Positions 12,203 to 57,004 are shown, counted from the stretch's first letter. The stretch: 64,000 nucleotides of DNA from an uncultured Acidobacteriota bacterium (GCA_963802675.1 CAWDJL010000005.1:361193-425192), one strand, 5' to 3'. Made by a program: numbers and translations. The notes: generated by a model from the sequence alone, not told the origin.

Positions 12203-12260
12203 CTCAGTCCTTCTGCCTTCTGCGCCGGGCTGCGCCTGACGTGGGCTCCACCGTTGGTGC

Positions 12261-12833: not shown

Positions 12834-12834
12834 G

Positions 12835-15333: not shown

Positions 15334-18300
15334 TTAGGTGCCAATTTGCTGTAGCTGATCAAAACTGTCAGCGGCTTGCCGTTCGAAGGATTCCAGGGAC
15401 GCCGAAAGGAGCCGCGCGAGCCCCGCGGCGAACGGTTCTCCCATCATGGTGCTGTGCGATCCGGGCACTTGGTGGACGTCTACGCCACCCGCCGCCAACC
15501 AATCCCACACCGGATCGTAACGAGTAGGCCACGGCCCCAGCAGGGGCAGAGTGCGTGGCAGAAACAACGTGACCCGGCCGCGGAACGGCTTGGGTTGATA
15601 GTTGTGAATCGCGCGGTGATGCGTCCGCAGCATTGCCGCCTGGGAATCCGGGAAGCGCCACATCCCAATCTGGTCGCGCAAGTCGAGCGGCGCCGCGTCC
15701 TCTCGATCGCGGAGCGCCGAGGTCGCGAGACGCGACAAGTGGCGACTCTTGCTGCGGATCCGTCCCAACAACTCCCGCGGCCCGCTGACGATCGCGTCGT
15801 CTACAACCCAGAGAGGAACGTTTCTGATGAAGGCCCAGACCGCTTTCATGCCCCGAACGCACGGGGGCTCGACCTCGTAGTCGATCGCGGTTAGCAGGCC
15901 GACCTCGGCACCCTGGGTGTCGAGTAGCCGGCCCATCTCGAGCACGAGCAGCGCGGCCGAGCAGAACCCGCCCAAGTGATATGGGCCTCGAGGTTGAGCC
16001 TCTCGCAGCACCTTCACGTAATGCGCGGCCATCTCTTCCAGCGTGGCATCACTCTGAATTTGCGACCAATCGGCTGAAAAGCCGTAGACCGGCCGCTCGG
16101 CGGCGAGGTACTTCGAGAGCCGGGTGTAGCTGAAGACCTCTCCGCCCGTCCCGTGCACCCAATAAAAGGGAATGCCCGATCCGCCGTCCGAGATCTTCAC
16201 GAGGACGTTCTGTGTGATCCGTCCTCGGTTGGCAGGCTCAGTGGCAGGCTGAGCCAACTCGTCGATGCGCCGAGCCAGGGCCTCGAGGACACTGTGCTCG
16301 AACAACGCTCCGGGCGGGAGCGTCAACCCGAACTCCTCATGCACGCGATGCACCAGACGCATGACGAGTAGTGAGTGTCCTCCGAGCATGAAAAAGTCAT
16401 CGGCGTGGCTGACGGTTGACAGGCCCAGCAGGTCACACCAGATGCCGGCAAGCCGCGCTTCGGTTTCCGTTGCCGGTGACCGGCGATGTGAGTCAGCCCG
16501 CGCACGATCCGCGTCCGAAGGCGCCGGAAGGGCCTGTCGGTCGAGCTTGCCGTTCGACGTGAACGGCCATGTCTGCACGATGACGAAAGCGGAAGGTACT
16601 GCGTGCGCAGGTAAGAGCCGACCGAGATGAAGGCGCAATGACGCAGGCTCGAGTTTCTCGCCCGACAGATAGGCGACGAGATTCTGCGTGCCCGGAACGT
16701 CCTCGCGGAGCAGAACGACCGACTGTTCCACGCCCGGGTGCGCTTGCAGCACCGACTCGATCTCCCCGAGTTCGACTCGGAAGCCCCGGACCTTGACTTG
16801 ATTATCGAAACGCCCCTGAAACTCGATCGTGCCGTTGCTCAGCCAGCGAACACGATCCCCCGTCCGATACATCCGCGTGGCTCCGGTCGCTGAAAAGGGG
16901 TCGGGCGGGAAGCGCTCCGCGGTCAGATCCTCACGATTGAGATAGCCGCGCGCAACGCCATCGCCACCGATCCAAAGTTCGCCGGGTACGCCGATCGGGC
17001 ACGGGTTACCGTGACGGTCCAGCACGTAAGCTTTGACGTTCGCCAGGGGGCGACCCAGAGGCAGCCCTTCGCTCGTGAGTGTCGATGCCAGGTCGTCGAC
17101 CCGGTAGGTGAGGGCCCCAACCGTCGTTTCCGTCGGGCCGTAGTGATTCACGATCTTGCAGCTCGGCGCGAGTTGCTGCAGCTCGGCGATCCACTCCAAG
17201 CGGGCAGCTTCGCCGCCCAAAACCAGGCATCGTCGTGGCAGCACGGCACGGGCATGGTGCGCCTTGAGCAGAGCGGCCAGGTGGGTCGGGGTGATCTTCA
17301 GCACGTCCACCTGGTGTTGCGACAGGTACTCCGCAAACGCTCGACCGTCACTGGCCCGTTCGGGGCTCAGCACATGCAGGGTCCCGCCGGTCGCGAGGGC
17401 AAGGAAGATCGACGTGTTCCCGAGGTCGGCGGCGACAGTCGAGACCAGCGCATAACTGCTGTGCGCTGGCTGTCCGAGACTCTCGTTGACGCCCCAGGTG
17501 TAATTCAAAACGTTCCGATGCTCGATGACGACGCCCTTGGGGACACCGGTGGTTCCTGACGTGTACATGACGTAGGCGGCATCCGTCGACTCAACGGGAA
17601 TGTCCAGGTTGTCGCCCGACTGCCGCTCGATGACCGCCCCATCACGATCCCAGAAGACCAACGACGTGCCATCACAGGGCGCACCGGCAATGAGCTGCGA
17701 TTGTGTGATGGCAAGGCGAACACCGGCGTCCGCCATGAGGAATGCAAGACGCTCGACGGGATAACTGGGATCCAGCGGCACGTAGGCACAGCCAGCCTTG
17801 TGAATGGCGAGCAGGCTGATGATGAATTCGACGGAGCGGTTGAGACAGATCGCAATCACGTCCTTGGGCTTCGCGCCGCGACTCACCAGAACCCGGGCGA
17901 GGCGATTGGCCAGACCATTCAGTTCGCCGAAGGTGAGCTGGATGTCCTCGCCGACCAAGGCGAGCCGGGTGGGTTCGGCTACAGCCCAGTCCTCGATGAG
18001 TTGATGCAGGCAAGGCCGTGACCGAAATTCGCGCGCGTTCTCGTTGGGAGCCACGAGCACTGCATGCAGTTCGCCCGCGTCGAGCAGAGTGAGCTGGTCG
18101 AGATGGCGGTCTGGCTTTGTCACGGCGTCCGTGACGAGGGTCGCCAGCCGCGTGAGCAGGCGATTCGCCGTCGACGCTTCGAGGGCGTCGCGGTTATATT
18201 CGAGAACGAGGCCGATCCCGTCGGTCGAGACGGTGGCGTGGAACGTTATGTCGAGCTTTGTCGAAACGGTGGTGGGCAGGAGCGTCGTTGCTGTGAGGCC

Positions 18301-19401
18301 AGGGAAACGGACGCTGTCGCCAACCCCGATTATGTTGAACAGCACTTGATACAGCGGGTGCTGACTCAAGCTGCGCACGGGATTAACGGCTTCGACGACT
18401 TTCTCGAACGGGACGTGTTGATGGCCATGAGCTTCGAGCACCGTCTCTCGCACGCGCTTGATCAAGTCGTGGAACGAGAACGAGCCCTCGAACGTCGTAC
18501 GGAGGACCACGGTGTTGATGCAGAGCCCGACGACTCGCTCGAGCTCGAACCGATCACGGCCGCTGAACGGGCAACCGATCGCGATGTCGGATTGGCCCGT
18601 ATGGCGATAGAGCAATGCCTTGAGAGCGGCCAGGAGCACGATGAACGGCGTCGCTGCGTGCACGCGCGCCAGTTCACGCACTGCATCGGCAACGCCGGCA
18701 GGCAGCGACGCAGTGACGACATGGCCGGTGTGGCTCGAGGGCAGGTGCCGATGGTCGACGGGAAAGCGAAGGTCCGGGCTCCCCTCGAGCCGTGACTTCC
18801 AGAATGCGAGCCCAGACGCCAACACCTCACCGCGCAGGTGCTGGCGTTGCCAGGCCGTCAGATCGACGTACTCGATCGTCGGCGCCGGCAATGAGGCGTC
18901 GCTGCCGGTGCAGCGCGCTTCGTACAGCGTCGCCAACTCATCGAGGACGATGTTCAGCGACATTCCATCAACGATGATGTGGTGGCTCGTGATGAGCAGC
19001 ACATGGCGGGTGTCATGGACGCGGATGAGACGAACGCGAACGAGCGGACCGTGCGACAAATCGAACGCCGTGCCGGTCGCTTCGTCGACGAGCTTCTGAA
19101 CCTGCCGATCCGAATCCGGGGCTGCCGGATCGATCTCAATCGTCTCGATATCGATGGCGGCTTCTGGAGCGATGACTTGGACCGCCTCGCCGTCCTCCTC
19201 TCGGAACGTCGTCCGAAACGATTCGTGGCGCGCGAACACGTCCCTGATGGCCCCGACGAACGCGCCCAGGACCATCGCACCGTCGAGCTGGATTGCGAGC
19301 GTGACGTTGTAAGCGGTATCCCCCGGCTTCAGGCGATCGAGAAACCACAGGCGCTGCTGCGCAAACGAGGCGGGGTGGGCAAACTCGGCTAGCGTCGACA
19401 C
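15334..19401 (-). CDS. Non-ribosomal peptide synthetase, single termination module C-A-T-TE (A-domain code Asp-like)
   Basis: C: SFAQQRLWFLD, SHHIIVDGMS. A: AYVMYTSGTTGVPKGV, NHYGPTETT, YRTGDRVRW, GKLDRQALP. T: DDFFMLGGHSLLV. TE: IPFYWVHGTGGEVF, PYHLGGFCSAALLVLEM, VPGSHSTMM. GTG start. Confidence 0.95.
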   Translation of the reverse strand: MSTLAEFAHPASFAQQRLWFLDRLKPGDTAYNVTLAIQLDGAMVLGAFVGAIRDVFARHESFRTTFREEDGEAVQVIAPEAAIDIETIEIDPAAPDSDRQVQKLVDEATGTAFDLSHGPLVRVRLIRVHDTRHVLLITSHHIIVDGMSLNIVLDELATLYEARCTGSDASLPAPTIEYVDLTAWQRQHLRGEVLASGLAFWKSRLEGSPDLRFPVDHRHLPSSHTGHVVTASLPAGVADAVRELARVHAATPFIVLLAALKALLYRHTGQSDIAIGCPFSGRDRFELERVVGLCINTVVLRTTFEGSFSFHDLIKRVRETVLEAHGHQHVPFEKVVEAVNPVRSLSQHPLYQVLFNIIGVGDSVRFPGLTATTLLPTTVSTKLDITFHATVSTDGIGLVLEYNRDALEASTANRLLTRLATLVTDAVTKPDRHLDQLTLLDAGELHAVLVAPNENAREFRSRPCLHQLIEDWAVAEPTRLALVGEDIQLTFGELNGLANRLARVLVSRGAKPKDVIAICLNRSVEFIISLLAIHKAGCAYVPLDPSYPVERLAFLMADAGVRLAITQSQLIAGAPCDGTSLVFWDRDGAVIERQSGDNLDIPVESTDAAYVMYTSGTTGVPKGVVIEHRNVLNYTWGVNESLGQPAHSSYALVSTVAADLGNTSIFLALATGGTLHVLSPERASDGRAFAEYLSQHQVDVLKITPTHLAALLKAHHARAVLPRRCLVLGGEAARLEWIAELQQLAPSCKIVNHYGPTETTVGALTYRVDDLASTLTSEGLPLGRPLANVKAYVLDRHGNPCPIGVPGELWIGGDGVARGYLNREDLTAERFPPDPFSATGATRMYRTGDRVRWLSNGTIEFQGRFDNQVKVRGFRVELGEIESVLQAHPGVEQSVVLLREDVPGTQNLVAYLSGEKLEPASLRLHLGRLLPAHAVPSAFVIVQTWPFTSNGKLDRQALPAPSDADRARADSHRRSPATETEARLAGIWCDLLGLSTVSHADDFFMLGGHSLLVMRLVHRVHEEFGLTLPPGALFEHSVLEALARRIDELAQPATEPANRGRITQNVLVKISDGGSGIPFYWVHGTGGEVFSYTRLSKYLAAERPVYGFSADWSQIQSDATLEEMAAHYVKVLREAQPRGPYHLGGFCSAALLVLEMGRLLDTQGAEVGLLTAIDYEVEPPCVRGMKAVWAFIRNVPLWVVDDAIVSGPRELLGRIRSKSRHLSRLATSALRDREDAAPLDLRDQIGMWRFPDSQAAMLRTHHRAIHNYQPKPFRGRVTLFLPRTLPLLGPWPTRYDPVWDWLAAGGVDVHQVPGSHSTMMGEPFAAGLARLLSASLESFERQAADSFDQLQQIGT

Positions 19402-19510: not shown

Positions 19511-22500
19511 TTACTTCAGACGAAGCCGATGACGCGCAAGCGCTGCGCTTTGGCGCTTCGCCCGATCGGCGATTCGGCTGTTCTCAGGCTCGTCCTTGGG
19601 GCGGCCCAGGTGCTGGGCCAGCTCTCTGATGGTCGAAAACTGAAACATCGTGACGATCGACAGATCTTGCTGCATGACGTCTCGGAGATCCCGGTGAACT
19701 TGAATCATGAGCAGCGATTGTCCGCCGAGATCAAAGAAGTTCTCGTCGGCGCCGATGTCGTCCAGGCCAAACGCCCGTTTCCAGATCGCAGCAATCTGAG
19801 TCTCCAGTCCAGGTCTCGGCGGCGAAGGGTGTTGTTTGCGGAGCCGCGCGGTCTTAGCTGACACTCGCATAGCGCGCGGCGCCGAGAGTCGCGCCATGAC
19901 GTCTGCGACCGTCAGAGAAGGCGTCGATAAGCCCTTCAGAGCCTCGGTCAGATCACGCAGGATCATCTGAAGGCTCGGCTGATCGTACGTACCATCCCTG
20001 GCAATGATGGTCACGCGGAGTTGTTCGCCCGGGACCGCCAGAATCGTCAACGGATAGTTGGTCTGCACCGGCGCGTTGAGCTCGCACACGTCGAGCTGGC
20101 TTCCAAAGCGGCGCAGAGCGTCAGCCGCGGTGTAGCCCTGCAGGACCAGGAGACTGTCGAAGAGACGCCCCGTTGTCGAACGCGCTGCCAAGCCGAGGAT
20201 TGTCGCAAGGGGCGTGAACTGATGCTTTGTCAGCTCGAATTGAAACTCTTGAACGGCCTGTCCCGCCGCAACAGCCGTGACCGAAGGGTCGACCGTAACA
20301 CGGACCGGGAGGTTGTTCACAAACGGTCCGACGATGCGTTCGACGCCGGGAAGTTCGGTCGGCCGCCCCGAGAATGCGACACCAAAGGTGACATCCCGCT
20401 TTCCGGAGTGCCGTGACAGAACCAAGGCCCAGGCGAGTTGAACGAATGTGTTCAGCGAAACGCGCCCACGACGGGTGAGATCCATCAGGGCGCTGGTGTC
20501 GCCCACGTCAAGCGCGTCGCTGACCTCGGCGCGCCCGTCCGCCCGTGCTGGGGACGCGGACAGGGCGGCAGGCAGCGGGGTTGGCTCGGTCACCCCGGTC
20601 AGCGTGCGCCGCCAGAACTCGTCTGACTCGTAGGTCGGCTGGTCGGCCAGCCACCTGACGTAGTCCGAGTACCGCGTTGGCGGGGAAGGATTTGTCCCGG
20701 TGTTGCCGGTCGTCAGCCCTTGGTACGCCGCCCCCACATCGGCGAATACCAGCGGGCAGGACCATCCATCGATGATGAGATGGTGGAAGGTCCAGAGCAG
20801 ATACGATTCCGTGTCGCTCGCACGGAAGACCGCAATCCTCATGAGCGGTGCGCGATCGAGACGAATAGGTCGGTGCCGGTCGCGTTCGGCAAACGCATCC
20901 AGTGCAGCACGCCGGGTGAGGTCGTCGAGGTGACGCCAATCCTCGTAGTGCCACTCCAGGCTGGCCTCCGGCAATACGACCTGCCTGGGCTGCGCCAGCC
21001 CTTCGACGGCGAAGGCGGTTCTGAAAATGGAATGGCTCTGCACCGTTTGGTGCCAGGCGCGTCTGAACAGCGCTTCGTCGAGCGCACCACGCAGGGTGAG
21101 CCGCCATTGGTCCATGCCCACAGAGGACCCGGCCGATACAGCCGCCAGGAACAAATCCTGAATCGGTGAGAGCGCACACACCTCCTCGACGGCTCGGCCG
21201 GATGCAATCTGATCGATCGCCGGTGGCTGCGCGGTGGATACCACGAGTCCCGGCGAGACTTCCGTAAGCGCGATCGCCTTGCGCAGTGCCGCTTGATAGA
21301 GCTCAATCAAGCGAGCGACTGACTCCCCGCGGTAAGCCGTTCGGGGATACATCCAGTCCAGCCGCAAACGACCGCCCACGACGCGAGCAATGATCTCGAA
21401 AAGATGGCTGCGCTTGCCGCGCGGCCCGTGCAACGGACCAAAGTCAACGTTGTCGTGAATCTCGAAGAGCGTGTCCGGGGAGCTTGCGCGGTCGAACTGG
21501 CCGAGATAGTTGAACATGACGTCCGGCGAGGGAGATTCCGCCAGTTTCGAGCGGCAGGCTTGATCGGGACTCAGGTAGCGCAGGAGGCCATAGCCGATGC
21601 CGCGGCTGGGGATGCGCCGCAACGCCGCGCGAGCGGCCAGGAGCGCGTCGCGACTATCGCTGATGTCGCCCTGAAGCCGGACCGGAAATATGGTCGTGAA
21701 CCATCCAATGGTGCGCGAGAGATCGAGGTCATCGAACAACGCTTCGCGTCCGTGTCCTTCCAAATCCACGAGTAGCGTTGCGTGCCCGCTCCATTGGTAG
21801 AACGCCTGGGCAAGCGCCGCCAGCAGGACGTCGTTGATCTGCGTCTGGAGGACCCGTGGAAGATCCTGCAGCAGGCGTTGAGTCTCCTCAGGTGTCAGAA
21901 GTGACGGTGTGATCTCGAGGTCCGACTCGCGCCCTTCGTGACGCTGCGACGGGTGGTCGACGGGGAGCGGCGGCACAGCCGGATCGAAAACGGACGCCCA
22001 GTAATCACGCTGGCTGGCTAGTTCTGCGGATTGTGCGTACGAGCGCAGCCGGCGTGCCCAGCGTGCATACGTTGTGGATGCAGCTGGCAGCCGGATCGCG
22101 AGCCCTTGGGCCAGGTGTCGATAGGCGGTTTCGAGATCGCCGACAAGGATTCGGAGCGAGACGCCATCGATCACGAGATGGTGGACCACGATCAGGATTT
22201 GACTGAGGGACGCGCCTAGCCGAAACAGCACGACGCGGATCAGCGGGCCCGAAGAGAGATTGAGCGACGCGTGCGTCCGCGCAGCATGTTCCCGCATCGC
22301 TTCCTGTTGCCGGATCTGCGAGAGCCCGGTCAGGTCCACGGTTTCCACCAGCTGCGGAGGCGGCGACGGGTCAAGACGCTGCTGCCACCCAGATTCCGCG
22401 GGCGCAAAGCGAAAGCGTAGCGCAGCATGATGCGGCATCACCGCGACCAACGCCTGCTGGAGCAGACCAGGATCGATTGGCCGGGCCGCTCGAGCCGAAA

Positions 22501-25500
22501 TCTCCATGTTCCAGTGCTCGGGCGCCGGCAGGCTCTTCTCGAAGAACCATTCCTGAATCGGCGTCAGCGAAACGCCATGGTCAGACGGGTCATCGGCCTC
22601 GACGTCGGGGGCTGTGGCGACGCGAGACGTTAACGCGCGAGCGAGCTCTGACACCGTGGGATGCTGAAACAAATCTCGCATACCCAGGCGGATACCCGAT
22701 TGCGCGGCACGGGACATCACCTGGATCGCGATAATCGAATCGCCGCCCATCTCGAAAAAGTTGTCATGGACACCGACCGAGCTGACGCGAAGCTGCTCTG
22801 CCCAGATGGCGGCCAGCCTCGCCTCGAGCTCGGCGTGAGGCGACTCGCCATCGACCACGGGATGGGCAGTGGCTTCTTGGCTTGGATCAAGGAACTCGAG
22901 AATTCGACGAGTGGTCGTGAGATCTGTGGCGATGCGCTGATACACGGATGAATCAGCGGGCCGGCGCCCGACATCGCCAGGGGGTGGCAGCGAGCGCTCG
23001 CCCGGTTCCGGTTCCTCTGATGGCGCCCAGCTGGCGGGTTTCAATGGCAGATCGCAGGCGGCCGCCGTCTCCAGCACAAACACGGTGGTCCCGGGTTCAC
23101 CGTCTCGTTTCTCGGCTTCGAGGGCCTCGGCAAATGCGAGTGCCGGCGTATTGCGGGCGGTGCGGCGAAACGGCAGCTCAACGTACGCGAGCTGCTCGGT
23201 CGCCGCCAATCGCCCAATGTGTTTGATGACCTCTCGTTCCACTCCTTTTCCCAAGACGCGGCAACTCAAGAGAAGCGTATCGACGACGAGCGCCCGGCGC
23301 GCCCGGTCGACGCGTGTGATCACCGCGCCAACGAGTCCGTAATCCCCAAAACGATCGCGCACATCCACCACTTCGATGACGGCTCCGTCAGTGGCCAACG
23401 CGCGCAGCTCGGCCTCGGATCGTCGAAAGGTCGTGAAGTTGAACTGGTTGGTGCGCTCGGTCATCTGCGCCGTTCGCGGCAACTGCTGCGGCGTCATCGG
23501 CGCGATTGTGATCTGAAGATCCAGCGTCTCCAGAAACGCCTCGAGGCTCATCCCGCTGTGCTGAAGCTGGCGACGGGCCACCTCTTGCTTGTACATCGCA
23601 CTGCGGCGCTTGTCTTCCTCGGTCTTTCGCCCTTGATCGAGCCGCCACAAGTGCTGCGTAAAGCCGGCCGCCTGGCGGTCATTGGTGGGCCACTGCAGCG
23701 TGACGACCTCAGGCGTCCGGTTCCGAACCTCTGCGCACTCGACCGGGTTGTCGTCGATGAATACAAAGCTGTCCAATCCGAGGTTCAACTCGCCGGCCAG
23801 ATCCTGCAGGTTCTGAGACTTGGGCTGCCAGTTGATTCGCGACGCCAGCACGTGCTCACGCTTCAGGATCATGTCCGGATGCGTGTCGAAGACGGCCCAG
23901 ACATCGGCCGGCTCGTTCTTGCTACACAGACCGATCAGCACGCCGGCGTCGTGTTGCGCGACCAGGTATCGCTGCAGCGCCGCATGTGGGCCGTCGATCG
24001 TCACGCCCCCAGCCCCGTCTTCCGCGCAGACGCCAGCCCACAAGGTATTGTCGCAGTCGACGCTGACGACCTTGGCAGGAATCCTCAGGCGGGCATGGGC
24101 CGCGCGCGCGACCAGCGTCGCGAGCAGCGCGTTTCCGGACGCCGTATATGGCATGTGCCCGAGCTCGTCGCCGCGAGCGTCGTAATAATCCGGGCACTCG
24201 TAGGTCGCGAGCGACTCGAGCCCTGATATCACCGGGATCCCGACCGAGGCGAGCCGTTCCCTGAGAGTCGCTTCGTTTCGCGCGATCACCGCAATCGACT
24301 CCGGATCGGCCGTCATGAAGGAAGACGGCGGACACGTGATCACGACTGAGGGTGACGCGGTGCGCGGAACGGCGGCGAGCACGGCATCGGCAAAATCACC
24401 GGCGTTGCGGTCGATCTGTTCGAACCGAGTTCGTCGGGCCGCGATATCGGCCGCACGATAGGCAGGGCGGGTGGCGAACAGGTTCCAGACGCCCGTGCTT
24501 CGCAGATCCTGCTCTTCTTCCACCACGACATCGAAGCCGTGCCGCTCGAGTAGCGCGACTGAAGCTGGGATCGCATCACCCCGGTCGTGAATCTCCATCA
24601 CGACCTGCTGAACCTTGCTCCAGTCGTCGTCGTCGATGCCGGCGATGAGCGCCAGCTCGCTCTTTTCGACGTCGATCTTGAGAAGGTCGATCGTCCCGAG
24701 GGCTTCGCTGCGGAGCACGTCGCTCAGGCGGCAAACCGGACGCACCAGCCGTTCTCGAGCGAGCCTTTGAGCTACGAGATGAGCGGACAGCTCCGTCGCT
24801 ACCTTCTGGTCAACCGCCAGCCCGCCGTCGCGTGCTAGGGACGTTTGAATGGCGTCGCGAAGGAACGCCGCGTCCTCGGTGTCGTCGGCCTCGAAGCCCG
24901 AGACGACCGAGAAGTTTTGATAGTAGGTGAAGGCGGCCTCGCCGTTTCGGTCGGCCAGACCGCACTCGAAGACTTTGAGATCGAGATCATGGAGCACGGC
25001 GTTGGCCCGCAGAAGGTTGGCGACGGTCGGGCTCGGTTCGAACGCGAGGATGCGCGGGCGTCGGCAGGCGAGTGACGCGAAGAGCGAGAACATCCCGATG
25101 TTCGCGCCGGCGTCGACGATTATCGCGCCGTCCTTCAGCGTCACGCCGTGCCGCAGATAGGCTCGGTTGACGAACAACTCTCGATACAGGTGCTCGGTCT
25201 CGTCACGATTCAGGTGAGCGACTTCGAGGCCGTTCGGGAGCCGGTACCGCGGCAGCTCGCGAGTGGCAGCGGGAGCAATTTCAGCGGAGGAGTGAGCGAC
25301 TCGATGGTTTCCCCGCATCCAGTCCTCGAAGCGCACCAGCAGCACGTTGAGCCCCTGATTGCGCGCCAGCAGCGTCTGTCCGTCGAGCAACTGCTGGAAC
25401 ACCTGGTTGTAGGGCGCAAACGTGACCTCCGCATCCAGGCCCAGCGTCGCCAACCAGGAGGTGAGGACCGGTGCTAGGGGTTCAGCGGTGAACGTGGCTG

Positions 25501-25546
25501 CTATGGCGAGCGTCGAGCGCGTTTGCATGCGAACCGAGTCTTCCAC
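19511..25546 (-). CDS. NRPS-type loading/condensation megaprotein: FkbH N-lobe / FkbM methyltransferase / FkbH HAD-IIIC core - T - E - C - T (no A domain)
   Basis: aa 1-80: LAIAATFTAEPL..APYNQVFQQLL..LLVRFEDW. aa ~100-345: IVDAGANIGMFSLF..ILAFEPSP..IDLLKIDVEKSE (FkbM). aa ~490-800: VVSVDCDNTLW..GLCSKN..FIDDNP..RFGDYGLVG..LSCRVLG (FkbH). T1: DNFFEMGGDSIIAIQ. E: all seven core motifs (LTPIQEWFF, HHLVIDGVS, NDVLLAAL, EGHGRE, RTIGWFTTIFPV, PSRGIGYG, FNYLGQ). C: ALSPIQDLF, FHHLIIDGWS. T2: ENFFDLGGQSLLM. Confidence 0.9.
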   Translation of the reverse strand: MEDSVRMQTRSTLAIAATFTAEPLAPVLTSWLATLGLDAEVTFAPYNQVFQQLLDGQTLLARNQGLNVLLVRFEDWMRGNHRVAHSSAEIAPAATRELPRYRLPNGLEVAHLNRDETEHLYRELFVNRAYLRHGVTLKDGAIIVDAGANIGMFSLFASLACRRPRILAFEPSPTVANLLRANAVLHDLDLKVFECGLADRNGEAAFTYYQNFSVVSGFEADDTEDAAFLRDAIQTSLARDGGLAVDQKVATELSAHLVAQRLARERLVRPVCRLSDVLRSEALGTIDLLKIDVEKSELALIAGIDDDDWSKVQQVVMEIHDRGDAIPASVALLERHGFDVVVEEEQDLRSTGVWNLFATRPAYRAADIAARRTRFEQIDRNAGDFADAVLAAVPRTASPSVVITCPPSSFMTADPESIAVIARNEATLRERLASVGIPVISGLESLATYECPDYYDARGDELGHMPYTASGNALLATLVARAAHARLRIPAKVVSVDCDNTLWAGVCAEDGAGGVTIDGPHAALQRYLVAQHDAGVLIGLCSKNEPADVWAVFDTHPDMILKREHVLASRINWQPKSQNLQDLAGELNLGLDSFVFIDDNPVECAEVRNRTPEVVTLQWPTNDRQAAGFTQHLWRLDQGRKTEEDKRRSAMYKQEVARRQLQHSGMSLEAFLETLDLQITIAPMTPQQLPRTAQMTERTNQFNFTTFRRSEAELRALATDGAVIEVVDVRDRFGDYGLVGAVITRVDRARRALVVDTLLLSCRVLGKGVEREVIKHIGRLAATEQLAYVELPFRRTARNTPALAFAEALEAEKRDGEPGTTVFVLETAAACDLPLKPASWAPSEEPEPGERSLPPPGDVGRRPADSSVYQRIATDLTTTRRILEFLDPSQEATAHPVVDGESPHAELEARLAAIWAEQLRVSSVGVHDNFFEMGGDSIIAIQVMSRAAQSGIRLGMRDLFQHPTVSELARALTSRVATAPDVEADDPSDHGVSLTPIQEWFFEKSLPAPEHWNMEISARAARPIDPGLLQQALVAVMPHHAALRFRFAPAESGWQQRLDPSPPPQLVETVDLTGLSQIRQQEAMREHAARTHASLNLSSGPLIRVVLFRLGASLSQILIVVHHLVIDGVSLRILVGDLETAYRHLAQGLAIRLPAASTTYARWARRLRSYAQSAELASQRDYWASVFDPAVPPLPVDHPSQRHEGRESDLEITPSLLTPEETQRLLQDLPRVLQTQINDVLLAALAQAFYQWSGHATLLVDLEGHGREALFDDLDLSRTIGWFTTIFPVRLQGDISDSRDALLAARAALRRIPSRGIGYGLLRYLSPDQACRSKLAESPSPDVMFNYLGQFDRASSPDTLFEIHDNVDFGPLHGPRGKRSHLFEIIARVVGGRLRLDWMYPRTAYRGESVARLIELYQAALRKAIALTEVSPGLVVSTAQPPAIDQIASGRAVEEVCALSPIQDLFLAAVSAGSSVGMDQWRLTLRGALDEALFRRAWHQTVQSHSIFRTAFAVEGLAQPRQVVLPEASLEWHYEDWRHLDDLTRRAALDAFAERDRHRPIRLDRAPLMRIAVFRASDTESYLLWTFHHLIIDGWSCPLVFADVGAAYQGLTTGNTGTNPSPPTRYSDYVRWLADQPTYESDEFWRRTLTGVTEPTPLPAALSASPARADGRAEVSDALDVGDTSALMDLTRRGRVSLNTFVQLAWALVLSRHSGKRDVTFGVAFSGRPTELPGVERIVGPFVNNLPVRVTVDPSVTAVAAGQAVQEFQFELTKHQFTPLATILGLAARSTTGRLFDSLLVLQGYTAADALRRFGSQLDVCELNAPVQTNYPLTILAVPGEQLRVTIIARDGTYDQPSLQMILRDLTEALKGLSTPSLTVADVMARLSAPRAMRVSAKTARLRKQHPSPPRPGLETQIAAIWKRAFGLDDIGADENFFDLGGQSLLMIQVHRDLRDVMQQDLSIVTMFQFSTIRELAQHLGRPKDEPENSRIADRAKRQSAALARHRLRLK

Positions 25547-26187
25547 CGATCATAACCACCGACAACCGCCCTCGATAAGTCCACAGGACGTCATGCGTGA
25601 TTGTCCCATGGTTGAGCAAAACGATGGCCAAGCCGCGTTTGCGGTCCCGCGCGCGCCCATGCGTGGCCCACGATGCGGAAAATGTTGCGATTTCCGGTGC
25701 TCTCGAGGGCGCGGCCCCCGGCGCGAAGCGATGGGTCTTACTTTTGCAAACCGGGCGGACGCCATGCCGTAGACGGTTGAATGTTGAAGCCAGTGGTTGG
25801 CGCATTCGTGACTTTTATCTGCCGCACGGCCGACAATCGCGCTCCCCAGGCCCCCGGGCACGTGGGCTGCGCATATCGTCGGTCATCCGTTGCTTCGAGG
25901 CGTGCCACGGCCGTTTATCGACAGGTCGAACGTCTGCCTGAAAAGATCGTCGCGCCTGTGTCGCGCGCCAAGGCTGCGCCGGAACGTGTGCGTCTGTGCA
26001 GGCGAGCAGCATTTAGCGCAAGTTGCTTCTGGGCAGACCCGGAATGCCGTCTACTAACGCCACGTTCGGCGGCTCTCTTGCACTATCCGCTGTGCCAGTC
26101 GTCGGGTGTCAAAATGTCGAATGATGCGTGCACGTCCGTCGTCAAGTACACTCGAAGACACCGTCTCTGACCAGCAAAGGCTTACGA
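25547..26187. promoter_or_regulatory. 640-bp divergent non-coding region between the two biosynthetic operons (presumed bidirectional promoter/leader region)
   Basis: No protein-like ORF appears in any frame; all ORFs here are R/A/P-rich. The region is flanked by divergent start codons at 25546 (-) and ~26188 (+). No promoter motifs could be assigned by eye. Confidence 0.3.
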
Positions 26188-28089
26188 GTGAGCACGACCT
26201 CCGAATCCCTCGTCGAGGGTATCGCCATCATTGGCGCCGTGGGGCGTTTCCCCGGCGCGTCAGACCTCGGTCAGTTCTGGGCCAATCTCACGGCCGGGGT
26301 CGAATCCGTCAGCGTGTTGACCGACGCGCAGCTGACGGAGTCGGGGTTCGACCCGCAGCAGCTCCGCGCCGATCCTCGGTATGTTCCGGTCCGCGGCATC
26401 ATCGAGCGCGCCGAGTGGTTCGATGCCGCCTTCTTTGCGTTCACGCCGCGCGAAGCCCAGCTCACCGATCCGCAGCACCGCCTTTTTCTCGAAGCCGCAT
26501 GGGAAGCGCTTGAAAGCGCCGGCTGTGATCCCTCGCGCAGCAAGGGTGCGATCGGCGTGTTCGCGGGTTGCGGTAACAATACGTGGGCGCGTCGATACTT
26601 CGCGCGAGACCTCGACGATCTCGAGTCGGGGGAGTGGCTGGAGTCGGCGATCGGCAACGAGAAGGACTACGTCGCCACCCGTGTCGCCTACAAGCTCAAT
26701 CTGCGTGGCCCCGCCGTCAATGTCAACACCGCCTGTTCGACCTCACTCGTCGCAGTGTGCCAGGCGTGTCAGGCGCTGTGGACCTACCAATGCGATGTCG
26801 CGCTCGCCGGCGGCGTGAACGTGAGCTTCCCACAGGGCCGTGGCTACTACCACGACGATGAGGGCATCTCGTCGCCGGATGGCCACACCCGCGCGTTTGA
26901 CGTCGATGCGCGCGGCACCGTGTTCAGCAACGGCCTGGGCGTCGTGGTGCTCAAACGGCTCGGCGAGGCGCTCGAAGACGGCGACGAAATCCTTGCCGTC
27001 ATTCGAGGCGCGGCCATCAACAACGACGGCTCTGGGAAGGCAAGCTTTACGGCGCCGAGCGCCGACGGGCAAGCGGACGTCGTAGCGCTGGCGCAGGCGA
27101 TGGCCGGCGTATCACCGGACAGCGTGTCGTATGTCGAGACCCACGGCACGGCCACGCCGATTGGCGACGTGATTGAGCTGGCCGGGCTCACGAAGGCGTT
27201 TCGACTGGGAACGGCGAGGACGCAGTTCTGCGCCATCGGCTCGGTCAAGTCCAACATCGGTCACGTCGAGCACGCCGCTGGCGTGGCGGGCCTGATCAAG
27301 ACCGCGTTGGCGCTGCAGCATCGACAGATTCCCCCAAGCCTCCACTACACGCAGCCGAACCCGAAACTGCAGGTGTCGTCGAGTCCGTTCTTCGTCAACC
27401 ATTCGCTGCGCGAATGGAGCAATGTCGACTCGCCGCGTCGCGCCGGGGTCAGTTCCTTTGGCGTCGGCGGGACGAATGCCCATGTGGTTCTCGAGGAGGC
27501 GCCTCCTCGTCCGCCTTCGGGTCCGTCTCACCCCTGGCATCTGCTGCCGCTGTCGGCGAAAACCGGAGCCGCGCTGGATGGGGCATCGTCGGCGCTGGCC
27601 GACTTTCTGAGAAGTCATCCCGAAACGCAGCTTGCCGACGTTGCTTTCACGTTGCAGCGAGGACGATCGTCGTTCGACTTTCGTCGTGCGGTGGTTGCGA
27701 GATGTCCGAAGGAAGCCAGCGCAATCCTGAGTGGTGAGGTGCCGGGAAAGAGCATCGGGCCCGAACGCGCAGGCGATCGCGAGGTCATTTTCATGTTCCC
27801 CGGCGGCGGCGCGCAGTATTGCGGTGCCGCGCGAGGTTTGTATTCGCAGCTCCCCGAATTCAAACAGCAGGTTGACGCCTGCCTGGGCGCTATGGATGCG
27901 CGAATCGCCGCGGCAGTGAGCCGACTGATGCTGGTCGCGCCTGAAGAGGTCACCGTCACCGACCGCGAGCTCGCCGAACGTCCATCAGTCGGCCTGCCGA
28001 TGCTGTTCGCGATCGAGTTTGCCACGGCCCAGGTACTGGCTTGCGCGGGGCGTGAAGCCAGCTGCGCTCATCGGGCACAGCCTGGGTGA
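26188..28089 (+). CDS. Hybrid PKS-NRPS, fragment 1: KS plus N-terminal part of AT (frame lost inside the AT domain)
   Basis: IAIIGAVGRFPGA, DPQHRLFLE, VNTACSTSLVAV (Cys ~26734), ETHGTATPIGD, SNIGHVEHAAG = KS. VIFMFPGGGAQY..LFAIEFATAQVLA = AT start. Likely GTG start at 26188 (AAAGG 8 nt upstream); the ORF track starts at 26128. The listed frame ends 13 codons after a G4 run at 28047-28050. Confidence 0.9.
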   Translation: MSTTSESLVEGIAIIGAVGRFPGASDLGQFWANLTAGVESVSVLTDAQLTESGFDPQQLRADPRYVPVRGIIERAEWFDAAFFAFTPREAQLTDPQHRLFLEAAWEALESAGCDPSRSKGAIGVFAGCGNNTWARRYFARDLDDLESGEWLESAIGNEKDYVATRVAYKLNLRGPAVNVNTACSTSLVAVCQACQALWTYQCDVALAGGVNVSFPQGRGYYHDDEGISSPDGHTRAFDVDARGTVFSNGLGVVVLKRLGEALEDGDEILAVIRGAAINNDGSGKASFTAPSADGQADVVALAQAMAGVSPDSVSYVETHGTATPIGDVIELAGLTKAFRLGTARTQFCAIGSVKSNIGHVEHAAGVAGLIKTALALQHRQIPPSLHYTQPNPKLQVSSSPFFVNHSLREWSNVDSPRRAGVSSFGVGGTNAHVVLEEAPPRPPSGPSHPWHLLPLSAKTGAALDGASSALADFLRSHPETQLADVAFTLQRGRSSFDFRRAVVARCPKEASAILSGEVPGKSIGPERAGDREVIFMFPGGGAQYCGAARGLYSQLPEFKQQVDACLGAMDARIAAAVSRLMLVAPEEVTVTDRELAERPSVGLPMLFAIEFATAQVLACAGREASCAHRAQPG

Positions 28090-31000
28090 GTACGCGGCAG
28101 CGTGCCTGTCCGGCGTCATGGCGCTGAACGATGCGGTCGCACTGGTGCAGCTGCGTGGGCGCTTGTTCGATGAGCTTCCCGCCGGGGCGATGTTGAGTAT
28201 CGGCGCCGCCGCGGATCGCGTCACACCGTACCTCGAAGTTGGGCTTGACGTCGCGGTCATCAACGGACCGGCATCGTGTGTCGTCTCGGGACGAACGGAC
28301 CAAATCGGGGCGCTGGCCGAACGGCTCGAGCGCGACGGCCTCGAGACCGTGCGGCTTCATATTGCGGTCGCGGCGCACTCGTCGCTCGTTGAGCCGATTT
28401 TGCCGGCGTTTCGATCATTCGTCAGCGGATTGCGCTTGCATGCGCCGCGGATCCCCATCGTGTCGAACGTCACGGGAACCTGGTTGGGCGATTCGCAGGC
28501 CGTGAATCCCGACTACTGGGTCGATCACCTTCGACGCACGGTCCGGTTCTCGGAAGGCCTGCAGTCTCTCTTCACGAAGCCGAACGCTGCCTTCGTCGAG
28601 GTCGGCCCTGGTCGTGTGCTGTCCACGATCACCCGGGCACATCCCGACCGACCGTCGTCGGTGATCGCAATCGAGTCGATGAGGCACCCGCAGGATTCGC
28701 GCGACGACTATGAGGCGCTACTGGCCGCTCAGGCCCGATTGTGGGTCAACGGCGTGGCTGTGGACTGGGAACGAGAGTATCGCGACGAAACGCGACGCCG
28801 GGTTGCACTGCCAACGTATCCTTTTGAGCGACAGTTCTTCGGTCCTGTCGGGCGGACGACCGCGCTTGAGCCGAGTCAGATCATGCCGACAGCGGTCGTT
28901 CGGGGCCCTGCGTCGTTGCCGCAACCGCCGGGACTCTCCTTGACCGCGCCGGATCGCCGGGAACGGATCGCAAACAAACTCTGCGACATTCTTCACGAGC
29001 TGTCGGGGCTCGATCGGGCGACGCTGCTGGGAAGAGCCACCTTCATCGAACTGGGGTTCGATTCGCTCTCGTTGACCCAGGTGTCGCAGCTCGTGCTGCG
29101 TGAGTTCCGCGTGCGCGTCAAGTTCCGTCACCTGCTCGACACGCTGCCGACGGTACCTGCCTTGGCCGCGCACCTCGACGGTGAGATGCCACCTGAGGCG
29201 CCAGCGCCGTCGGTTGCTTCCTCGGAGGTGGTGTCCTCTACACTAACTGCGATGACACGGCTGCCCGACGCGGCGGCGATGCTATCAAAGACACCCAACC
29301 CTCCAGCGTTCGTTCAGGAGGTAATACGGCAGCAGCTTGCGTTGATGACCCAGCAGATCGCCGTCTTGCAGGGAGCAGCAACGGCGGCGCCGCCGAGTTC
29401 GCCTCCAGACCGTCCGACCGTTGCACTTACCCGTGTTCAGGATCGGCCGCTTGACGCCGGTGGCCTCGGGGCGGTCGCATCGCTGGGCCGGCTCAAGCCG
29501 GAGCTGTTGACGTCTCAGCAGCGCCGTTACCTGGCGGAGCTGATCGAGCGCTACACGTCCAGAACGGCGAAGTCCAAGGAGCTGACCCAACGCTTCCGGC
29601 CCCGCCACGCGGACCCGAGAACCGCATCCGGCTTCACTGGGCTGTGGAAGGAACTGGTTTATCCAATCGTGGTTTCGCGCTCCGGCGGCTCCCGGCTCTG
29701 GGACGTCGACGGCAACGAATACATCGACCTTCTCTGTGGATTCGGTCCGACGTTCCTCGGACACGGTCACGAGGTCATCGTCGAGGCCATCAATCAACAA
29801 CTGGCGCGCGGCTTTGAGCTTGGGCCGCAAACCCCCTTGGCGGGAGAGGTAGCCGACCTGTTCTGTGACTTGACCGGCCAGGAGCGTGTGAGCTTTGTCA
29901 ATACGGGCTCTGAAGCGGTGCAGGCGGCCTTGCGCCTTGCGCGAACCGTTACCGGCCGGACGAAAGTAGCGACGTTCACGCGGGATTATCACGGCAACTT
30001 CGACGAGATGTTGGTACGTGGGCTGCGGCGCGGCAACGAGCCGCGAACGGTTCCCTCCGCTCCTGGGATCCCGCAGCGGGCGGTCGACGACGTCATCGTG
30101 CTCGATTACGGCACGGAGGAGTCGCTGGAGTTCCTGAAGCGCTCGGCCCACGAGCTGGCCGCGATCGTGGTCGAACCCATACAGAGTCGACGACCGGAAT
30201 TCCAGCCGCGAGAGTTCCTGCAGGCACTCCGTGCCCTGACGCTGACGTCCGAGACTTTGTTGGTCTTCGACGAGGTCGTGACCGGACTCCGGATCGGTCC
30301 CGGCGGCGCCCAGGCACATTTCGGGATCCAGGCGGACCTGGCCACTTACGGCAAGGTGCTAGGCGGCGGCATGCCGATTGGAGCAGTGGCCGGACGTGCC
30401 GAGTTCATGGACACGTTCGACGGCGGCCAATGGCAATACGGCGATGAGTCGATGCCGGTCAAGCCGGTCACGTTCTTCGCCGGAACATTTGCGCGGCATC
30501 CCCTGGCAATGGCCGCTGCAAAGGCCACACTCACGTACCTCAAGGCAGGTGGACAATCGCTGTGGGACGGCCTGAACACGCGCAGCGACGGGCTGGCCGA
30601 CGCACTTGATGCAATCTGTCGGCGTGAGGGCATCCCGGTCCGGGTTCCGCACTTCCGTTCGATGATGTACCCGTATATCGAAGAAGGCCACGGGCTCGCA
30701 TACCTGCTTTTCTATGAGCTTCGGACGCGCGGCCTTTACTTGCACGAACCCTATCCGTGCTACCTGAATCTCGCGCACTCGGACGACGACATCGCCAGGG
30801 TAATCGCGGAGTTCGAGGCTGCCGTTTCGTGTCTGCGAGCCAATGGCGTGTTCGAGCGAATGCAATCGCCCGCAATGTTAGGCGATCCGGCGAGTGCAGG
30901 ACGCGGGCGTCCGGCGGCTCCTGCCGAGTCCGAGAGCAGTGCGCCGCCTTCTCTCGTCGTCAACGCAGCAGCGACTGAGGCCGCGACCGCGCCAGCGGAC

Positions 31001-34000
31001 CGTCGATCGGGCGAGGTATTCGTCTGTGACGCGTCCCTGATGCAGGAAGGGCTCTGGTTCATCGACCAGACGGTTCCGCTGCGGGCCACGTACAACATTC
31101 CAGTGGCGTTCGAGCTGCGCGGGCGCGTTGATTGGGTCGCATTTCAAAGGGCTGTTGACGACCTGGTGGAACGCCACGGGACGCTTCGCACGTCGTTTAC
31201 CGCGCGCGATGGTGCCCCACTCCAAGTCATCTCACCGGCCACGAAGGTTACGGTCGAGTACCGAGAAATCAGCGACAGCCCTACCGCGAGTGCCGAGGTT
31301 CACGCGTTGGTCCAGGCCGAAGCCGAGCAACCTTTCGATCTCGCGGTCGCGCCGTTGCTTCGAGTCAAGGCCTTTTCGCTATCAGACGTGCAGCATCTGG
31401 TCAGCTTCGTTTTCCACCACATCATCGTCGACGGGTGGTCGATCGGCGCCTTTTTCAAAGAGTTTGCTGCTGCGTATGCCGCGCGCGCCGCGGGCCGTCG
31501 CCCGGAGCTGCCGCCCGTCGCAGTCGACTATGCCGACTTTTCGATCTGGCAGCGCCAGCATCTGACCAACGAAGTGCAAGAGGCCCAACTCGATTACTGG
31601 CGCGAAACGCTGACCGGCGCGCCCGATTCCCTGGAGCTGCCGACGGATCGACCACGGCCGAAGCTCTCGTCCGGCGGCGGATGGACGGAGTGGTTCACCA
31701 TCGACGCCAAGACGACCACGATTCTCCGTGAGCTTTGCCGTCGAGAACAGACGACGATGTTCATGGCCGTCGTAAGTGTCATCGACGTTCTGCTCGCGCG
31801 CCACACGGGCGTGTACGACATCGTGGTCGGGTCGCCGATGGCAGGCCAGGTGGCCCAAGACGTCGAGAACACCCTTGGGTTCTTTGTCAACACCCTCGCG
31901 TTACGGACCAGGTTTTCGCCCGACGTCACCTTTCGCGAGCTGCTCGGTCGCACGAGAGCAACGACGCTCGGCGCGTATGAGAACGCAGACGTCCCGTTTT
32001 CTCAGGTGGTCGGAGCCGTCCGGCCAGAACGCGTGGCTGCCACCAATCCGCTGTTTCAGGTCATGTGCACTTTCGAAGCCGCGCCGGACGAGCTGCTGAG
32101 CCTGCCGGGCCTGGGGGTGCGGCCATACAACGTCAGCAGCGGGACTTCGAAGTTCGATCTTCTGTTCGATTTCCAGGAGCACCGGGAGGTCATCGAGGCA
32201 ACGCTCGAGTACAGCAGCGACCTTTTCGACGTCGGGGCGGGTCAGCGATGGGTTCAGCGATTCTTGACCTTGGCCGGAGCCGCCGCCCGCCAGCCCAATG
32301 TGCCTGTTTCAGCCTTGACGCTGATGCCGCCGGCCGAGCGCGACCAGATTCGTCAGTGGAGTGTCGCGGCTGCTGGAGAGGACTCCGGTCCCCCCCGAAC
32401 CTGGGCCTCGCTGCCCGACGCGTTCGACCAGCAGGCCAAGCAGACGCCCGAGGCTTCGGCGCTGGTCATGGGTGAGCGCGCGATGACCTACGGCGAGCTC
32501 AGGGAGCGTTCGAATCGAGTGGCACGGTATCTCGATCGGGTGGGTGTCGCCCGCGGCCATGCGGTCGGTTTGTGCATGGATCGATCGTTCGATCTGGTTG
32601 TGGCGCTGCTCGGGATTCTCAAGGCAGGTGCCGCCTACGTGCCGCTGGATCCCAACTACCCCGCGCAGCGTCTGACGCTGATGGCCGGTGACGCTGCCTT
32701 GAACGTCATTCTCGCCGACGGCACGGTCAAGACGGACTGGGCGGATCGAGCCGTTCGTGTCGTCCGCCTCGATGCCGACTGGCCGCTGATCAGCGGCAAA
32801 GAAGCCGAACCCCCGCAGCGGGACCTCACCGGCGCCGATCTCGCGTACATCATCTACACCTCGGGATCGACGGGGCAACCGAAAGGTGTGGCAATGTCAC
32901 ATGCGCCACTGCTGAACCTGCTGCAGTGGCAACTCGCCCGTTCCGCCGCTGGGCGTGGTGCGCGGACGCTGCAGTTTGCGCCCATCAGCTTCGATGTCTC
33001 GTTTCAGGAAATCTTCGCAACCCTCTGCAGCGGCGGGTCACTGGTCCTGATCGACGATGATGGTCGTCGAGATTCCCAGAGACTGCTGTCCACGCTGCGG
33101 GACCAGCATGTCAATCGACTCTTCCTGCCTTTCGTCGCGCTGCAGGCCTTGTGCGAAGCGGCGCAGTCGTCCGGCGTTATGCCGTGTGATCTGACCGAGG
33201 TGATCACGGCCGGTGAACAACTTCAGATCACGACGAGCGTCACGGCCTTCTTCGCATCGCTCGCGCGATGCTCGCTGGACAATCAATACGGGCCGACCGA
33301 AAGCCACGTCGTTACGGCTCACCGCCTCGAGGGCGCGCCGAAATCATGGCCACTGCTGCCGCCGATTGGCCGCCCAATCGCTAACGCTCGTGCATATGTG
33401 CTTGACGATCGTATGACGCCCGTCCCGATTGGCGTGCCGGGCGAGATCTACCTCGGCGGAGCCGTGTTGGCACAGGGCTACTACGGCAAGCCCGAGCTGA
33501 CCGCCGAAAGATTCTGTTTCAGCCCGTTCGAGCCAGGAATCCGGTTGTACCGGACCGGCGATGCCGCTCGTTGGCGGCCCGACGGCGCCCTGGAGTTCCT
33601 CGGCCGGTTGGATAGTCAGATCAAGATCAGAGGCCACCGGGTCGAGTTGAGTGAGATCGAAGCGATTCTCTGCACGGTACCCGGGATTGAGAGCGCCGTC
33701 GTCAGCGTCATCGGTAACGATGCCGTCACGCGCCGGCTGGTCGGATATGTGGTCTCACCGGCCGGCTCAGTCGATCCGGAAACCATTCGTCAGCATCTCC
33801 GGCTGAAACTTCCCGAGTACATGGTCCCGGCGATTTTCGTCGGGCTCGATCGCCTGCCACGGACGCCGAACGGCAAGATCGACCGCCGGTCGCTGCCTGC
33901 ACCACTTCCCAGTGTCCGCGAGCTCCCGCCGGTTGAGCGCCCGGCGGATCCAATCGAGGAACGCATAGCAACGATCTTCCGCGACGTGCTGAATGACGGG

Positions 34001-34255: not shown

Positions 34256-34382
34256 GATTGGCGGCCAGGATGCAAAAATCAGAAGTAGTGCGCATCGTGC
34301 GACACCCTTGCGCGCGCGACAGTAACGAGGTGGTTACTCGGTCGTAGCGCTCACGGCTGAGTCGGCGTATTCTGGTCTGGGG

Positions 34383-39696: not shown

Positions 39697-39719
39697 AAGG
39701 CGGGTGAGAACAGGCCCGT

Positions 39720-39811: not shown

Positions 39812-39814
39812 AGA

Positions 39815-47293: not shown

Positions 47294-47336
47294 GTGATCA
47301 GCCTAGCAGGCCGTCGTGACCTTCCACCACGCGCTG

Positions 47337-55357: not shown

Positions 55358-55368
55358 AGTACCCGTTC

Positions 55369-56961: not shown

Positions 56962-57004
56962 GTGTGGGCCGGTCGATTGGCGGCCATGATTCCAGGGAAG
57001 TGCA

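Follow-up and report, generated by a model that had tools for sequence, protein, structure and literature searches.

In a 64,000-nucleotide stretch of DNA from an uncultured Acidobacteriota bacterium (GCA_963802675.1, CAWDJL010000005.1:361193-425192; the whole stretch is hereafter the window), a gene on the minus strand (19511..25546) is best read as encoding the loading module of a small nonribosomal peptide synthetase (NRPS) line, in which an FkbM-family S-adenosylmethionine (SAM)-dependent methyltransferase (MT) is spliced, as an independent lobe, into the loop after strand β3 of the N-terminal domain (N-domain) of an FkbH-type glyceryl loader. Translation and profile scans reveal a single intact open reading frame (ORF) specifying a peptide synthetase of 2011 amino acids (aa), with a GTG start codon at 25546 and an in-frame ATG (M7) at 25528. 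Its domains are ordered [N-segment/FkbM MT/rest of the N-domain/HAD-IIIC/GNAT-like lobe]-T1-E-C(DCL)-T2, where T, E and C denote carrier, epimerization and condensation domains. The original prediction for this locus, a glycerate-type FkbH loader with an FkbM MT spliced into its N-terminal region and furnishing an O-methylglyceryl starter in cis, was drawn for 23149-25546, which corresponds to aa 1 to ~800 of the larger protein.

That the MT is a true insertion of ~295 aa, as opposed to an N-terminal fusion, follows from the alignment of aa 10-78 with the N-domain of MT-less FkbH homologs (44-49% identity), which is picked up again at aa ~374. The former segment (25313..25519, minus strand; IAATFTAEP...QVFQQLL...VRFEDW) comprises the first β-α-β-α-β unit of the FkbH N-domain, as delineated by homolog alignment and an AlphaFold2 model, and the assignment of the first ~80 aa to the FkbH N-lobe in the original prediction is thereby upheld. 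The inserted MT, inclusive of a flexible entry linker (80-85), occupies aa ~79-373 (24428..25312, minus strand), being recognized by PF05050 and TIGR01444 and absent in MT-less homologs; the rest of the N-domain (aa 374-490; 24077..24427, minus strand), delineated by homolog alignment, the AlphaFold2 model and the structure 3slr, includes the end of a long helix (361-395), a strand (400-404) and further helices. The cleanest borders are provided by an FkbH encoded on a Ralstonia megaplasmid (L009), in which residues 471-540 match aa 10-78 (49% identity) and residues 548-1002 match aa 374-830, leaving 7 residues where the acidobacterial loader has 295. Likewise, an MT-less C-FkbH-T protein of 1254 aa from a deltaproteobacterial metagenome-assembled genome (MAG; L004) aligns in two collinear blocks, namely residues 522-611 with aa 10-98 (44% identity) and residues ~601-1053 with aa ~368-816 (40% identity). 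Over the MT-less homologs the junction is bridged by 7-20 residues versus ~295 in the acidobacterial loader, which bears out the predicted insertion topology. tblastn searches of plasmids yielded two-piece matches for MT-less FkbH genes (Ralstonia, Aquisphaera, Niallia, Streptomyces) and one-piece matches for MT-containing genes (Kitasatospora, Embleya, Streptomyces). When 343 proteins from three homolog searches were surveyed, the order N-segment, MT, rest of the N-domain, HAD and C-terminal lobe was found in every one of the 130 MT-containing homologs; in these 130 proteins a median of 301 aa (range 282-364) separates the N-segment from what remains of the N-domain, as against a median of 14 aa in 198 MT-less ones. 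A neighbor-joining tree of the HAD and C-terminal lobe core, whose distances are saturated and in which some split genes are mislabeled, gave 26 state changes and was not relied on as to a single or multiple origin of the insert. The literature that we searched yielded no paper describing an MT inserted into the FkbH N-domain.

From a 92-sequence alignment, AlphaFold2 modeled aa 1-830 with good confidence (predicted local distance difference test score, pLDDT, 91.2; predicted TM-score, pTM, 0.80), with pLDDT below 50 only at residues 1-7 and in the entry linker 80-85. In this model the β-α-β-α-β unit (11-71), whose strands 11-17, 39-43 and 66-71 have pLDDT values above 94, is followed by the MT (~93-359; pLDDT mostly above 85) and then by the long helix 361-395, which leads back into the N-domain. 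Foldseek ranked 3slr first among PDB entries, with a target-normalized TM-score (TMt) of 0.63; this structure covers the N-terminal portion of BF1531 from Bacteroides fragilis, a protein of unknown function. As the 376 residues of 3slr cover 640 query columns, this alignment spans an insert of ~260 residues. The two structures share the fold of the N-domain and the HAD core, whereas 3slr lacks the MT insert and, as a crystallized fragment, the GNAT lobe. The original prediction had called for comparison with an OzmB-like FkbH fold; a PDB sequence search for a solved FkbH or OzmB structure returned 3slr alone, which was used instead. The C-terminal lobe (aa ~641-815) matched GNAT acetyltransferases in Foldseek searches (TMt 0.6-0.75).

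Domain models scoring far above their cut-offs support the FkbM and FkbH identities. The MT is detected by Pfam PF05050 (FkbM; aa 145-339, 52.6 bits against a cut-off of 22.7) and NCBIfam TIGR01444 (fkbM_fam; aa 143-320, 85.7 bits against 37.7), and the FkbH part by TIGR01686 (FkbH; aa 491-812, 296.7 bits against 146.65, E-value 1.9e-88) and TIGR01681 (HAD-IIIC; aa 492-609, 59.5 bits against 35.75). The HAD-IIIC phosphatase core (aa 491-640; 23627..24076, minus strand) is delineated by the latter two models, by its invariant residues and by a sequence match to 3slr, and the GNAT-fold C-terminal lobe of FkbH (aa 641-815; 23102..23626, minus strand) by TIGR01686, which extends to aa 812, by Foldseek and by an LLSCR motif. 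Beyond a conserved helical linker (816-905) lies the carrier domain T1 (aa 906-980; 22607..22831, minus strand; PF00550 at 910-972), with its phosphopantetheine serine in place (GGDS936I). These borders agree with the layout originally described: the MT, placed at aa ~100-345, is somewhat longer at ~79-373, the HAD-IIIC core with DCDNT and the C-terminal lobe are where they were expected, and the carrier domain sits just beyond the coordinates first assigned to the loader.

The catalytic motifs of both enzymes, whose degeneration had been named as an observation that would speak against the original prediction, are likewise intact. In an alignment of 92 family sequences (A1; mean identity 43%), D145, G147, A148, N149 and G151 of the SAM-binding motif DAGANIG (aa 145-151, read directly at nt 25094-25114) are invariant, as are, or nearly so, about 30 more MT positions; the longer stretch IVDAGANIG at 143-151 fits VxDxGAxxG. 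The HAD motifs, namely D497-C-D499-N-T501 (motif I; DCDNT, aa 497-501, read directly at nt 24044-24058), S542 (motif II; LCSKN), K576 (motif III) and D598-D599 (motif IV), are all present, and D497, D499, T501, S542, K576, D598 and D599 are invariant in the same alignment. In the GNAT-like lobe, S761-C762-R763 of LLSCR is invariant, with SCRVL read directly at the expected codons, and C498, C541 and C604 are near-invariant; C762 is a candidate for the cysteine of an acyl-S-enzyme intermediate. Literature searches on the FkbH catalytic cysteine, and on the enol-ether starter discussed below, returned nothing usable.

The original prediction passed over what follows T1, namely an E domain, a DCL-type C domain and a second carrier domain in a module without an adenylation (A) domain. 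The E domain (aa ~990-1440; 21227..22579, minus strand), detected by TIGR01720, has all the characteristic motifs (HHLVIDGVS, EGHGRE, RTIGWFT and FNYLGQ, fitting HHxxxDG, EGHGRE, RTxGWFT and FNYLG), and matches solved E domains (PvdL, TycA 2xhg, GrsA 5isw) with 222-340 bits as against ~50 bits for ordinary C domains. The GGDSI motif, as in T1, is the carrier variant usual ahead of E domains. The C domain (aa 1454-1874; 19925..21187, minus strand; PF00668; LSPIQDLF..., HHLIIDGWS) has as its best PDB sequence matches the D-donor, post-E C domains of McyB, BacC, PvdL, TycB1 and SrfA-C, and the carrier domain T2 (GGQS; aa 1903-1987; 19586..19840, minus strand) was identified by profile scans and its motif. 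This second, C-T module (19586-21187, minus strand) lacks an A domain; profile scans detected none anywhere in the 2011-aa protein, and the scanned ORFs of the window contain no stand-alone A domain, sulfotransferase or fkbI/K genes. Since related contigs, at 95% and 67% protein identity, show the same gene order with the A-less module included, the arrangement is real and not an assembly artifact. The next gene (15334..19401, minus strand) codes for a 1355-aa C(LCL)-A-T-thioesterase (TE) protein by Pfam scans, with the Asp-like A-domain code DLTKVGHVGK, as read off an alignment to a fragment of GrsA. The closest genome match to aa 1-830, at 96% identity, is an uncultured Acidobacteriota MAG (CAVTGK010000061); the DNA of the window is 94-98% identical to this contig and to a second metagenome contig, in both of which the loader copies are broken by many frameshifts while that of the window is intact.

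In light of these domains, we infer a series of chemical steps, together with their regiochemistry, stereochemistry and the source of the T2 substrate. We think it likely overall that a D-glyceryl unit is loaded, O-methylated in cis with the 2-hydroxyl favored, possibly epimerized, and extended to a short N-acyl peptide. By homology to characterized FkbH, the FkbH part would take D-1,3-bisphosphoglycerate, remove the 3-phosphate and move the D-glyceryl unit to the phosphopantetheine arm of T1, whereupon the FkbM-family MT, with SAM, would place an O-methyl group on the T1-bound glyceryl unit in cis, probably at the 2-hydroxyl. The E domain could then invert C2, and the DCL-type C domain would condense the acyl unit with an aminoacyl group borne by the A-less T2, whose charging probably takes place in trans, with the Asp-like A domain of the next protein as the simplest source. 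Finally, the C-A(Asp)-T-TE protein would add Asp and release a product of the N-(O-methylglyceroyl)-X-Asp type. The O-methylglyceryl starter made in cis, as originally predicted, is supported by its agreement with published proposals for loaders combining an O-methyltransferase (OMT), FkbH, a peptidyl carrier protein (PCP) and a sulfotransferase (ST), and with the gene contexts of homologs.

The sequence does not fix whether the 2- or the 3-hydroxyl is methylated; the contexts of homologs favor O-2. A 992-aa MT/FkbH-T loader (P0006, 46% identical) is adjoined by a sulfotransferase gene, with NRPS genes downstream, a setting reminiscent of the cyanobacterial 2-O-methyl-3-O-sulfo unit. In Nibricoccus (L006) and a Gemmatimonadaceae MAG (L013) a protein combining a dehydratase (DH), the MT/FkbH unit and an acyl carrier protein (ACP) stands ahead of genes for a 3-hydroxyacyl-CoA dehydrogenase, a small ACP and an acyl-CoA dehydrogenase, the gene set of the methoxymalonyl-ACP pathway. 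Moreover, the N-terminal polyketide synthase (PKS) DH fused to most family members needs a free 3-hydroxyl, which favors methylation at O-2. Methylation at O-3, giving 3-O-methylglycerate, appears unlikely to us: it gains from the finding that the MT's closest relatives outside FkbH (38-45% identity) are placed between an A and a T domain in NRPS modules, where a β-hydroxyl would be the likely target, and from the lack in the window of a sulfotransferase or a DH needing a free 3-hydroxyl, but in the known products of OMT-FkbH loaders the methyl group is at O-2 (Mgs; PMC10143770), and the homolog contexts, be they sulfotransferase, fkbI/J/K-like genes or fused DH, demand a free 3-hydroxyl or a 2-methoxy product. 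Of appreciably lower probability still is the action of the MT on a later intermediate or another group, such as the Asp carboxylate or the released product, which would leave plain glycerate as the starter. While nothing direct ties the MT to T1, and related FkbM-type MTs occur in several module contexts, the insert holds one fixed site in FkbH whatever follows it (ACP in proteins with an N-terminal DH, T alone, T-C or T-E-C), making FkbH and the carrier its only constant partners; furthermore, published pathways with the same domain order give O-methylglycerate (PMC8609519, PMC13122637). We give very little credence to the inserted MT being an inactive structural relic, for which we find no specific evidence and which sits poorly with a SAM motif and ~30 MT positions that are invariant or nearly so at ~43% mean identity, and with the confidence of the modeled MT domain.

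The E domain poses a separate problem. We tentatively entertain, as a possibility of low probability, that it acts on an α-alkoxy acyl thioester, either converting 2-O-methyl-D-glyceryl-S-T1 to the L form, which the C domain would then select, or promoting β-elimination to a 2-methoxyacryloyl starter, and thus stands in for the dehydratase of its relatives. If true, the chemistry of E domains would no longer be confined to aminoacyl and peptidyl substrates, and FkbH-T-E loaders, whether MT-containing or MT-less, would constitute a metagenomic, uncharacterized family. MT-less metagenomic proteins of FkbH-T-E or C-FkbH-T-E order (P0122-P0130) are 38-43% identical over aa 491-1440, and their existence suggests that epimerization of carrier-bound glyceryl is recurrent, if uncharacterized; the literature searched held no description of epimerization of carrier-bound glycerate. 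The elimination taken by itself, in which the E domain would abstract the α-proton after 2-O-methylation and expel the 3-hydroxyl to yield the enol ether, strikes us as quite improbable. E domains do act via an α-carbanion, and the one in question seems redundant on a substrate that is already D-configured; most family members have an N-terminal PKS dehydratase that the acidobacterial loader lacks, and the commoner DH-MT/FkbH-ACP relatives would be expected to arrive at the same product, with DH in the place of E. Nevertheless, the domain displays all canonical motifs and is closest to ordinary epimerases, the MT-less FkbH-T-E proteins point to plain epimerization of glyceryl-S-T, hydroxide is a poor leaving group, and we know of no E domain shown to dehydrate its substrate.

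Several points weigh against cis-loaded and cis-methylated D-glycerate as the starter of this line. The literature searched contained no biochemical data for the loader in question or for any FkbM-type MT embedded in FkbH. As FkbH loads the D (2R) acid, a mimic of a D-amino acid, an E domain and a DCL gate are not obviously needed, and the A-less module does not itself specify the second residue. The likeness to the cyanobacterial SuoB, DysB and BslA proteins is one of published domain order. If the C-A-MT-T relatives methylate Ser or Thr side chains, then the equivalent position in glycerate would be O-3.

The nearest described systems are the loading modules of cyanobacterial aeruginosin-type NRPSs with MT, FkbH, PCP and sulfotransferase, such as DysB (dysinosin), SuoB (suomilide), BslA and AerB of varlaxin, which have been proposed to give 2-O-methylglyceric acid 3-O-sulfate (PMC6520454, PMC8609519, PMC13122637, PMC10143770). 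These have in common with the acidobacterial protein the joining of MT, FkbH and carrier in a single polypeptide that opens an NRPS (order from PMC10143770, PMC13122637), and the proposed derivation of glycerate from 1,3-bisphosphoglycerate with O-methylation in cis (PMC6520454, PMC8609519, PMC13122637, PMC10143770). They differ in that the acidobacterial T1 leads into E-DCL-T without an A domain and in the host phylum; also, unlike in the OMT-FkbH-PCP-ST modules, no match to the sulfotransferase family was detected in the loader protein or among the scanned ORFs of the window. In a search seeded with a cyanobacterial FkbH-T-ST protein, combined with tblastn against plasmids, the FkbH-T-ST proteins returned from cyanobacteria were all MT-less and no SuoB- or DysB-type protein was retrieved. 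Outside the cyanobacteria, at locus L007 (8714-12979), a 992-aa MT/FkbH-T loader is immediately preceded by a stand-alone sulfotransferase gene and followed downstream by a C-TauD protein and NRPS modules; by analogy, this could be a counterpart of the 2-O-methyl-3-O-sulfoglycerate starter.

FkbH has also been described as a substitute for the A domain in the NRPSs for vioprolide, corramycin and cystomanamide (PMC8949500, PMC10099666), and a glyceric-acid loading domain is known from the oscillapeptin/cyanopeptolin oci clusters (PMC2533009). The C-FkbH-T modules of the former and the proteins P0122-P0130 likewise have a long FkbH (N-domain, HAD and GNAT lobe) in place of an A domain, and P0122-P0130 additionally share the FkbH-T-E order with the acidobacterial protein. 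However, these MT-less modules lack the ~295-aa insert, and those of the vioprolide type follow a C domain and serve in elongation or esterification instead of standing at the N-terminus. The stand-alone FkbH/OzmB of the methoxymalonyl-ACP pathway (fkbGHIJK) shares the HAD-IIIC/FkbH core and the presumed 1,3-bisphosphoglycerate chemistry. In that pathway O-methylation is performed by a separate FkbG-type enzyme, after two oxidations. Profile scans of the window found no FkbK-like 3-hydroxyacyl-CoA dehydrogenase, FkbI-like acyl-CoA dehydrogenase or discrete ACP by the FkbH gene.

The architecture is common, already annotated and partly published, and the present case adds a member in a new, acidobacterial host, with a less usual continuation as E-DCL-T without an A domain. 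The original prediction had missed how common the design is: the first homolog search recovered 368 relatives, nearly all of the best 120 of which carry PF05050, at least 130 retrieved database proteins have the MT at the identical site, and several relatives bear the JGI name "FkbH-like protein/FkbM family methyltransferase", so that the design is both widespread and named in automatic annotation. Its hosts include Gemmatimonadota, Verrucomicrobiota (Opitutaceae, Chthoniobacter, Nibricoccus), Acidobacteriota (Vicinamibacterales), Chloroflexota (Caldilineaceae), cyanobacteria and actinomycetes, with Symploca and Acaryochloris added by later homolog searches. Most relatives are DH-MT/FkbH-ACP proteins of ~1300 aa, with a minority of MT/FkbH-T loaders of ~1000 aa. 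Over aa 1-830 both types are 40-47% identical to the acidobacterial loader and share its insertion site and invariant residues, whereas most members of the family have an N-terminal DH, feed a PKS and are often accompanied by fkbK/J/I-like genes, in contrast to the acidobacterial loader, which has no DH and leads on into NRPS domains, an E domain among them.

Loci of the large, uncharacterized DH-MT/FkbH-ACP family were found at L006 10001-17939, L013 8001-15698 and L012 8001-17021. In two phyla, represented by a Verrucomicrobiota genome and a Gemmatimonadaceae MAG, the cassette is succeeded by genes for a 3-hydroxyacyl-CoA dehydrogenase, an ACP, an acyl-CoA dehydrogenase, an AMP-ligase and a PKS with ketosynthase (KS), acyltransferase (AT) and ketoreductase (KR) domains; the gene set is reminiscent of methoxymalonyl-ACP biosynthesis, from which it departs by its FkbM-type MT and an extra DH. 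A minimal cluster at L015 5778-13497 consists of a phosphopantetheinyl transferase (PPTase), an MT/FkbH-ACP protein (P0269) and a single KS-AT-ACP-TE PKS, and would make a very small O-methylglycerate-derived ketide. FkbM-type MTs 38-41% identical to the insert are found after the A domain in NRPS modules at L010 5896-13572 (Nostoc sp. UHCC 0926 plasmid pn1) and L011 6016-13449 (Paenibacillus polymyxa M1 plasmid pPPM1a), with further matches to insert-like MTs in Eleftheria terrae, Rhizobium and Burkholderia ubonensis. Judging from these sequence contexts, the FkbM-type MT appears to behave as a portable NRPS tailoring cassette.

The remainder of the window encodes several other systems. Divergently oriented from the loader is a second line (26128-38450, plus strand) with the architecture KS-AT-T-aminotransferase (AmT)-C-A(Pro-like)-T, followed by C-A(Val code DAFWIGGTFK)-T-TE; its start is like that of the iturin/mycosubtilin β-amino fatty acid systems, but there is no acyl ligase or ACP ahead of the KS. 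Its AT is split over two frames at ~28019-28089 (plus strand), with ORF 26128-28089 ending at about position 83 of the AT profile and ORF 28019-34255 starting at about position 77. The KS-AT-T-AmT region is a single ORF in a 95% relative (L001), and the split reflects a frameshift that is either genuine or due to faulty assembly. Two 1355-aa ORFs flanking the locus had raised the suspicion of a large inverted duplication, which we reject, as they are paralogous C-A-T-TE proteins only 34% identical to each other and the two genes of ~2000 aa are unrelated in architecture. Directly downstream of the NRPS genes, and co-directional with them, is a block of polysaccharide type (933-14921, minus strand) coding for GT4 and GT2 glycosyltransferases, a glucose-1-phosphate nucleotidyltransferase, two NAD-dependent epimerases/dehydratases, a flavin amine oxidase and a Wzy_C/O-antigen-ligase-like protein; its products may act in glycosylation of the peptide, or the block may be an unrelated exopolysaccharide/lipopolysaccharide cluster. 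In L001, GT4 and nucleotidyltransferase genes likewise come after the NRPS genes. Between 38450 and 43571 lie long ORFs that overlap on both strands and have no Pfam hit (39663-40619, 39815-41032, 41051-42070 and 42033-43040). Additionally, two adjacent genes for trypsin-like/PDZ proteins of the HtrA type are located at 45912-48254 (minus strand), and three consecutive paralogs of the PmbA/TldD metallopeptidase family at 55285-59965 (plus strand).

The exact borders (aa ~79-373) and the confident model describe a self-contained MT cassette inside FkbH. As annotation tools overlook the 70-residue N-segment and report the MT as merely preceding FkbH, these borders help to correct such annotations, and they should be of use in adding or removing the MT in the engineering of loaders. 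As a lead for new chemistry, the DH-MT/FkbH-ACP and FkbH-T-E families are of more interest than the acidobacterial loader. With respect to its host, the module leads us to predict, for an uncultured soil acidobacterium, a short peptide with an O-methylglycerate cap, a feature so far linked to cyanobacterial protease inhibitors.

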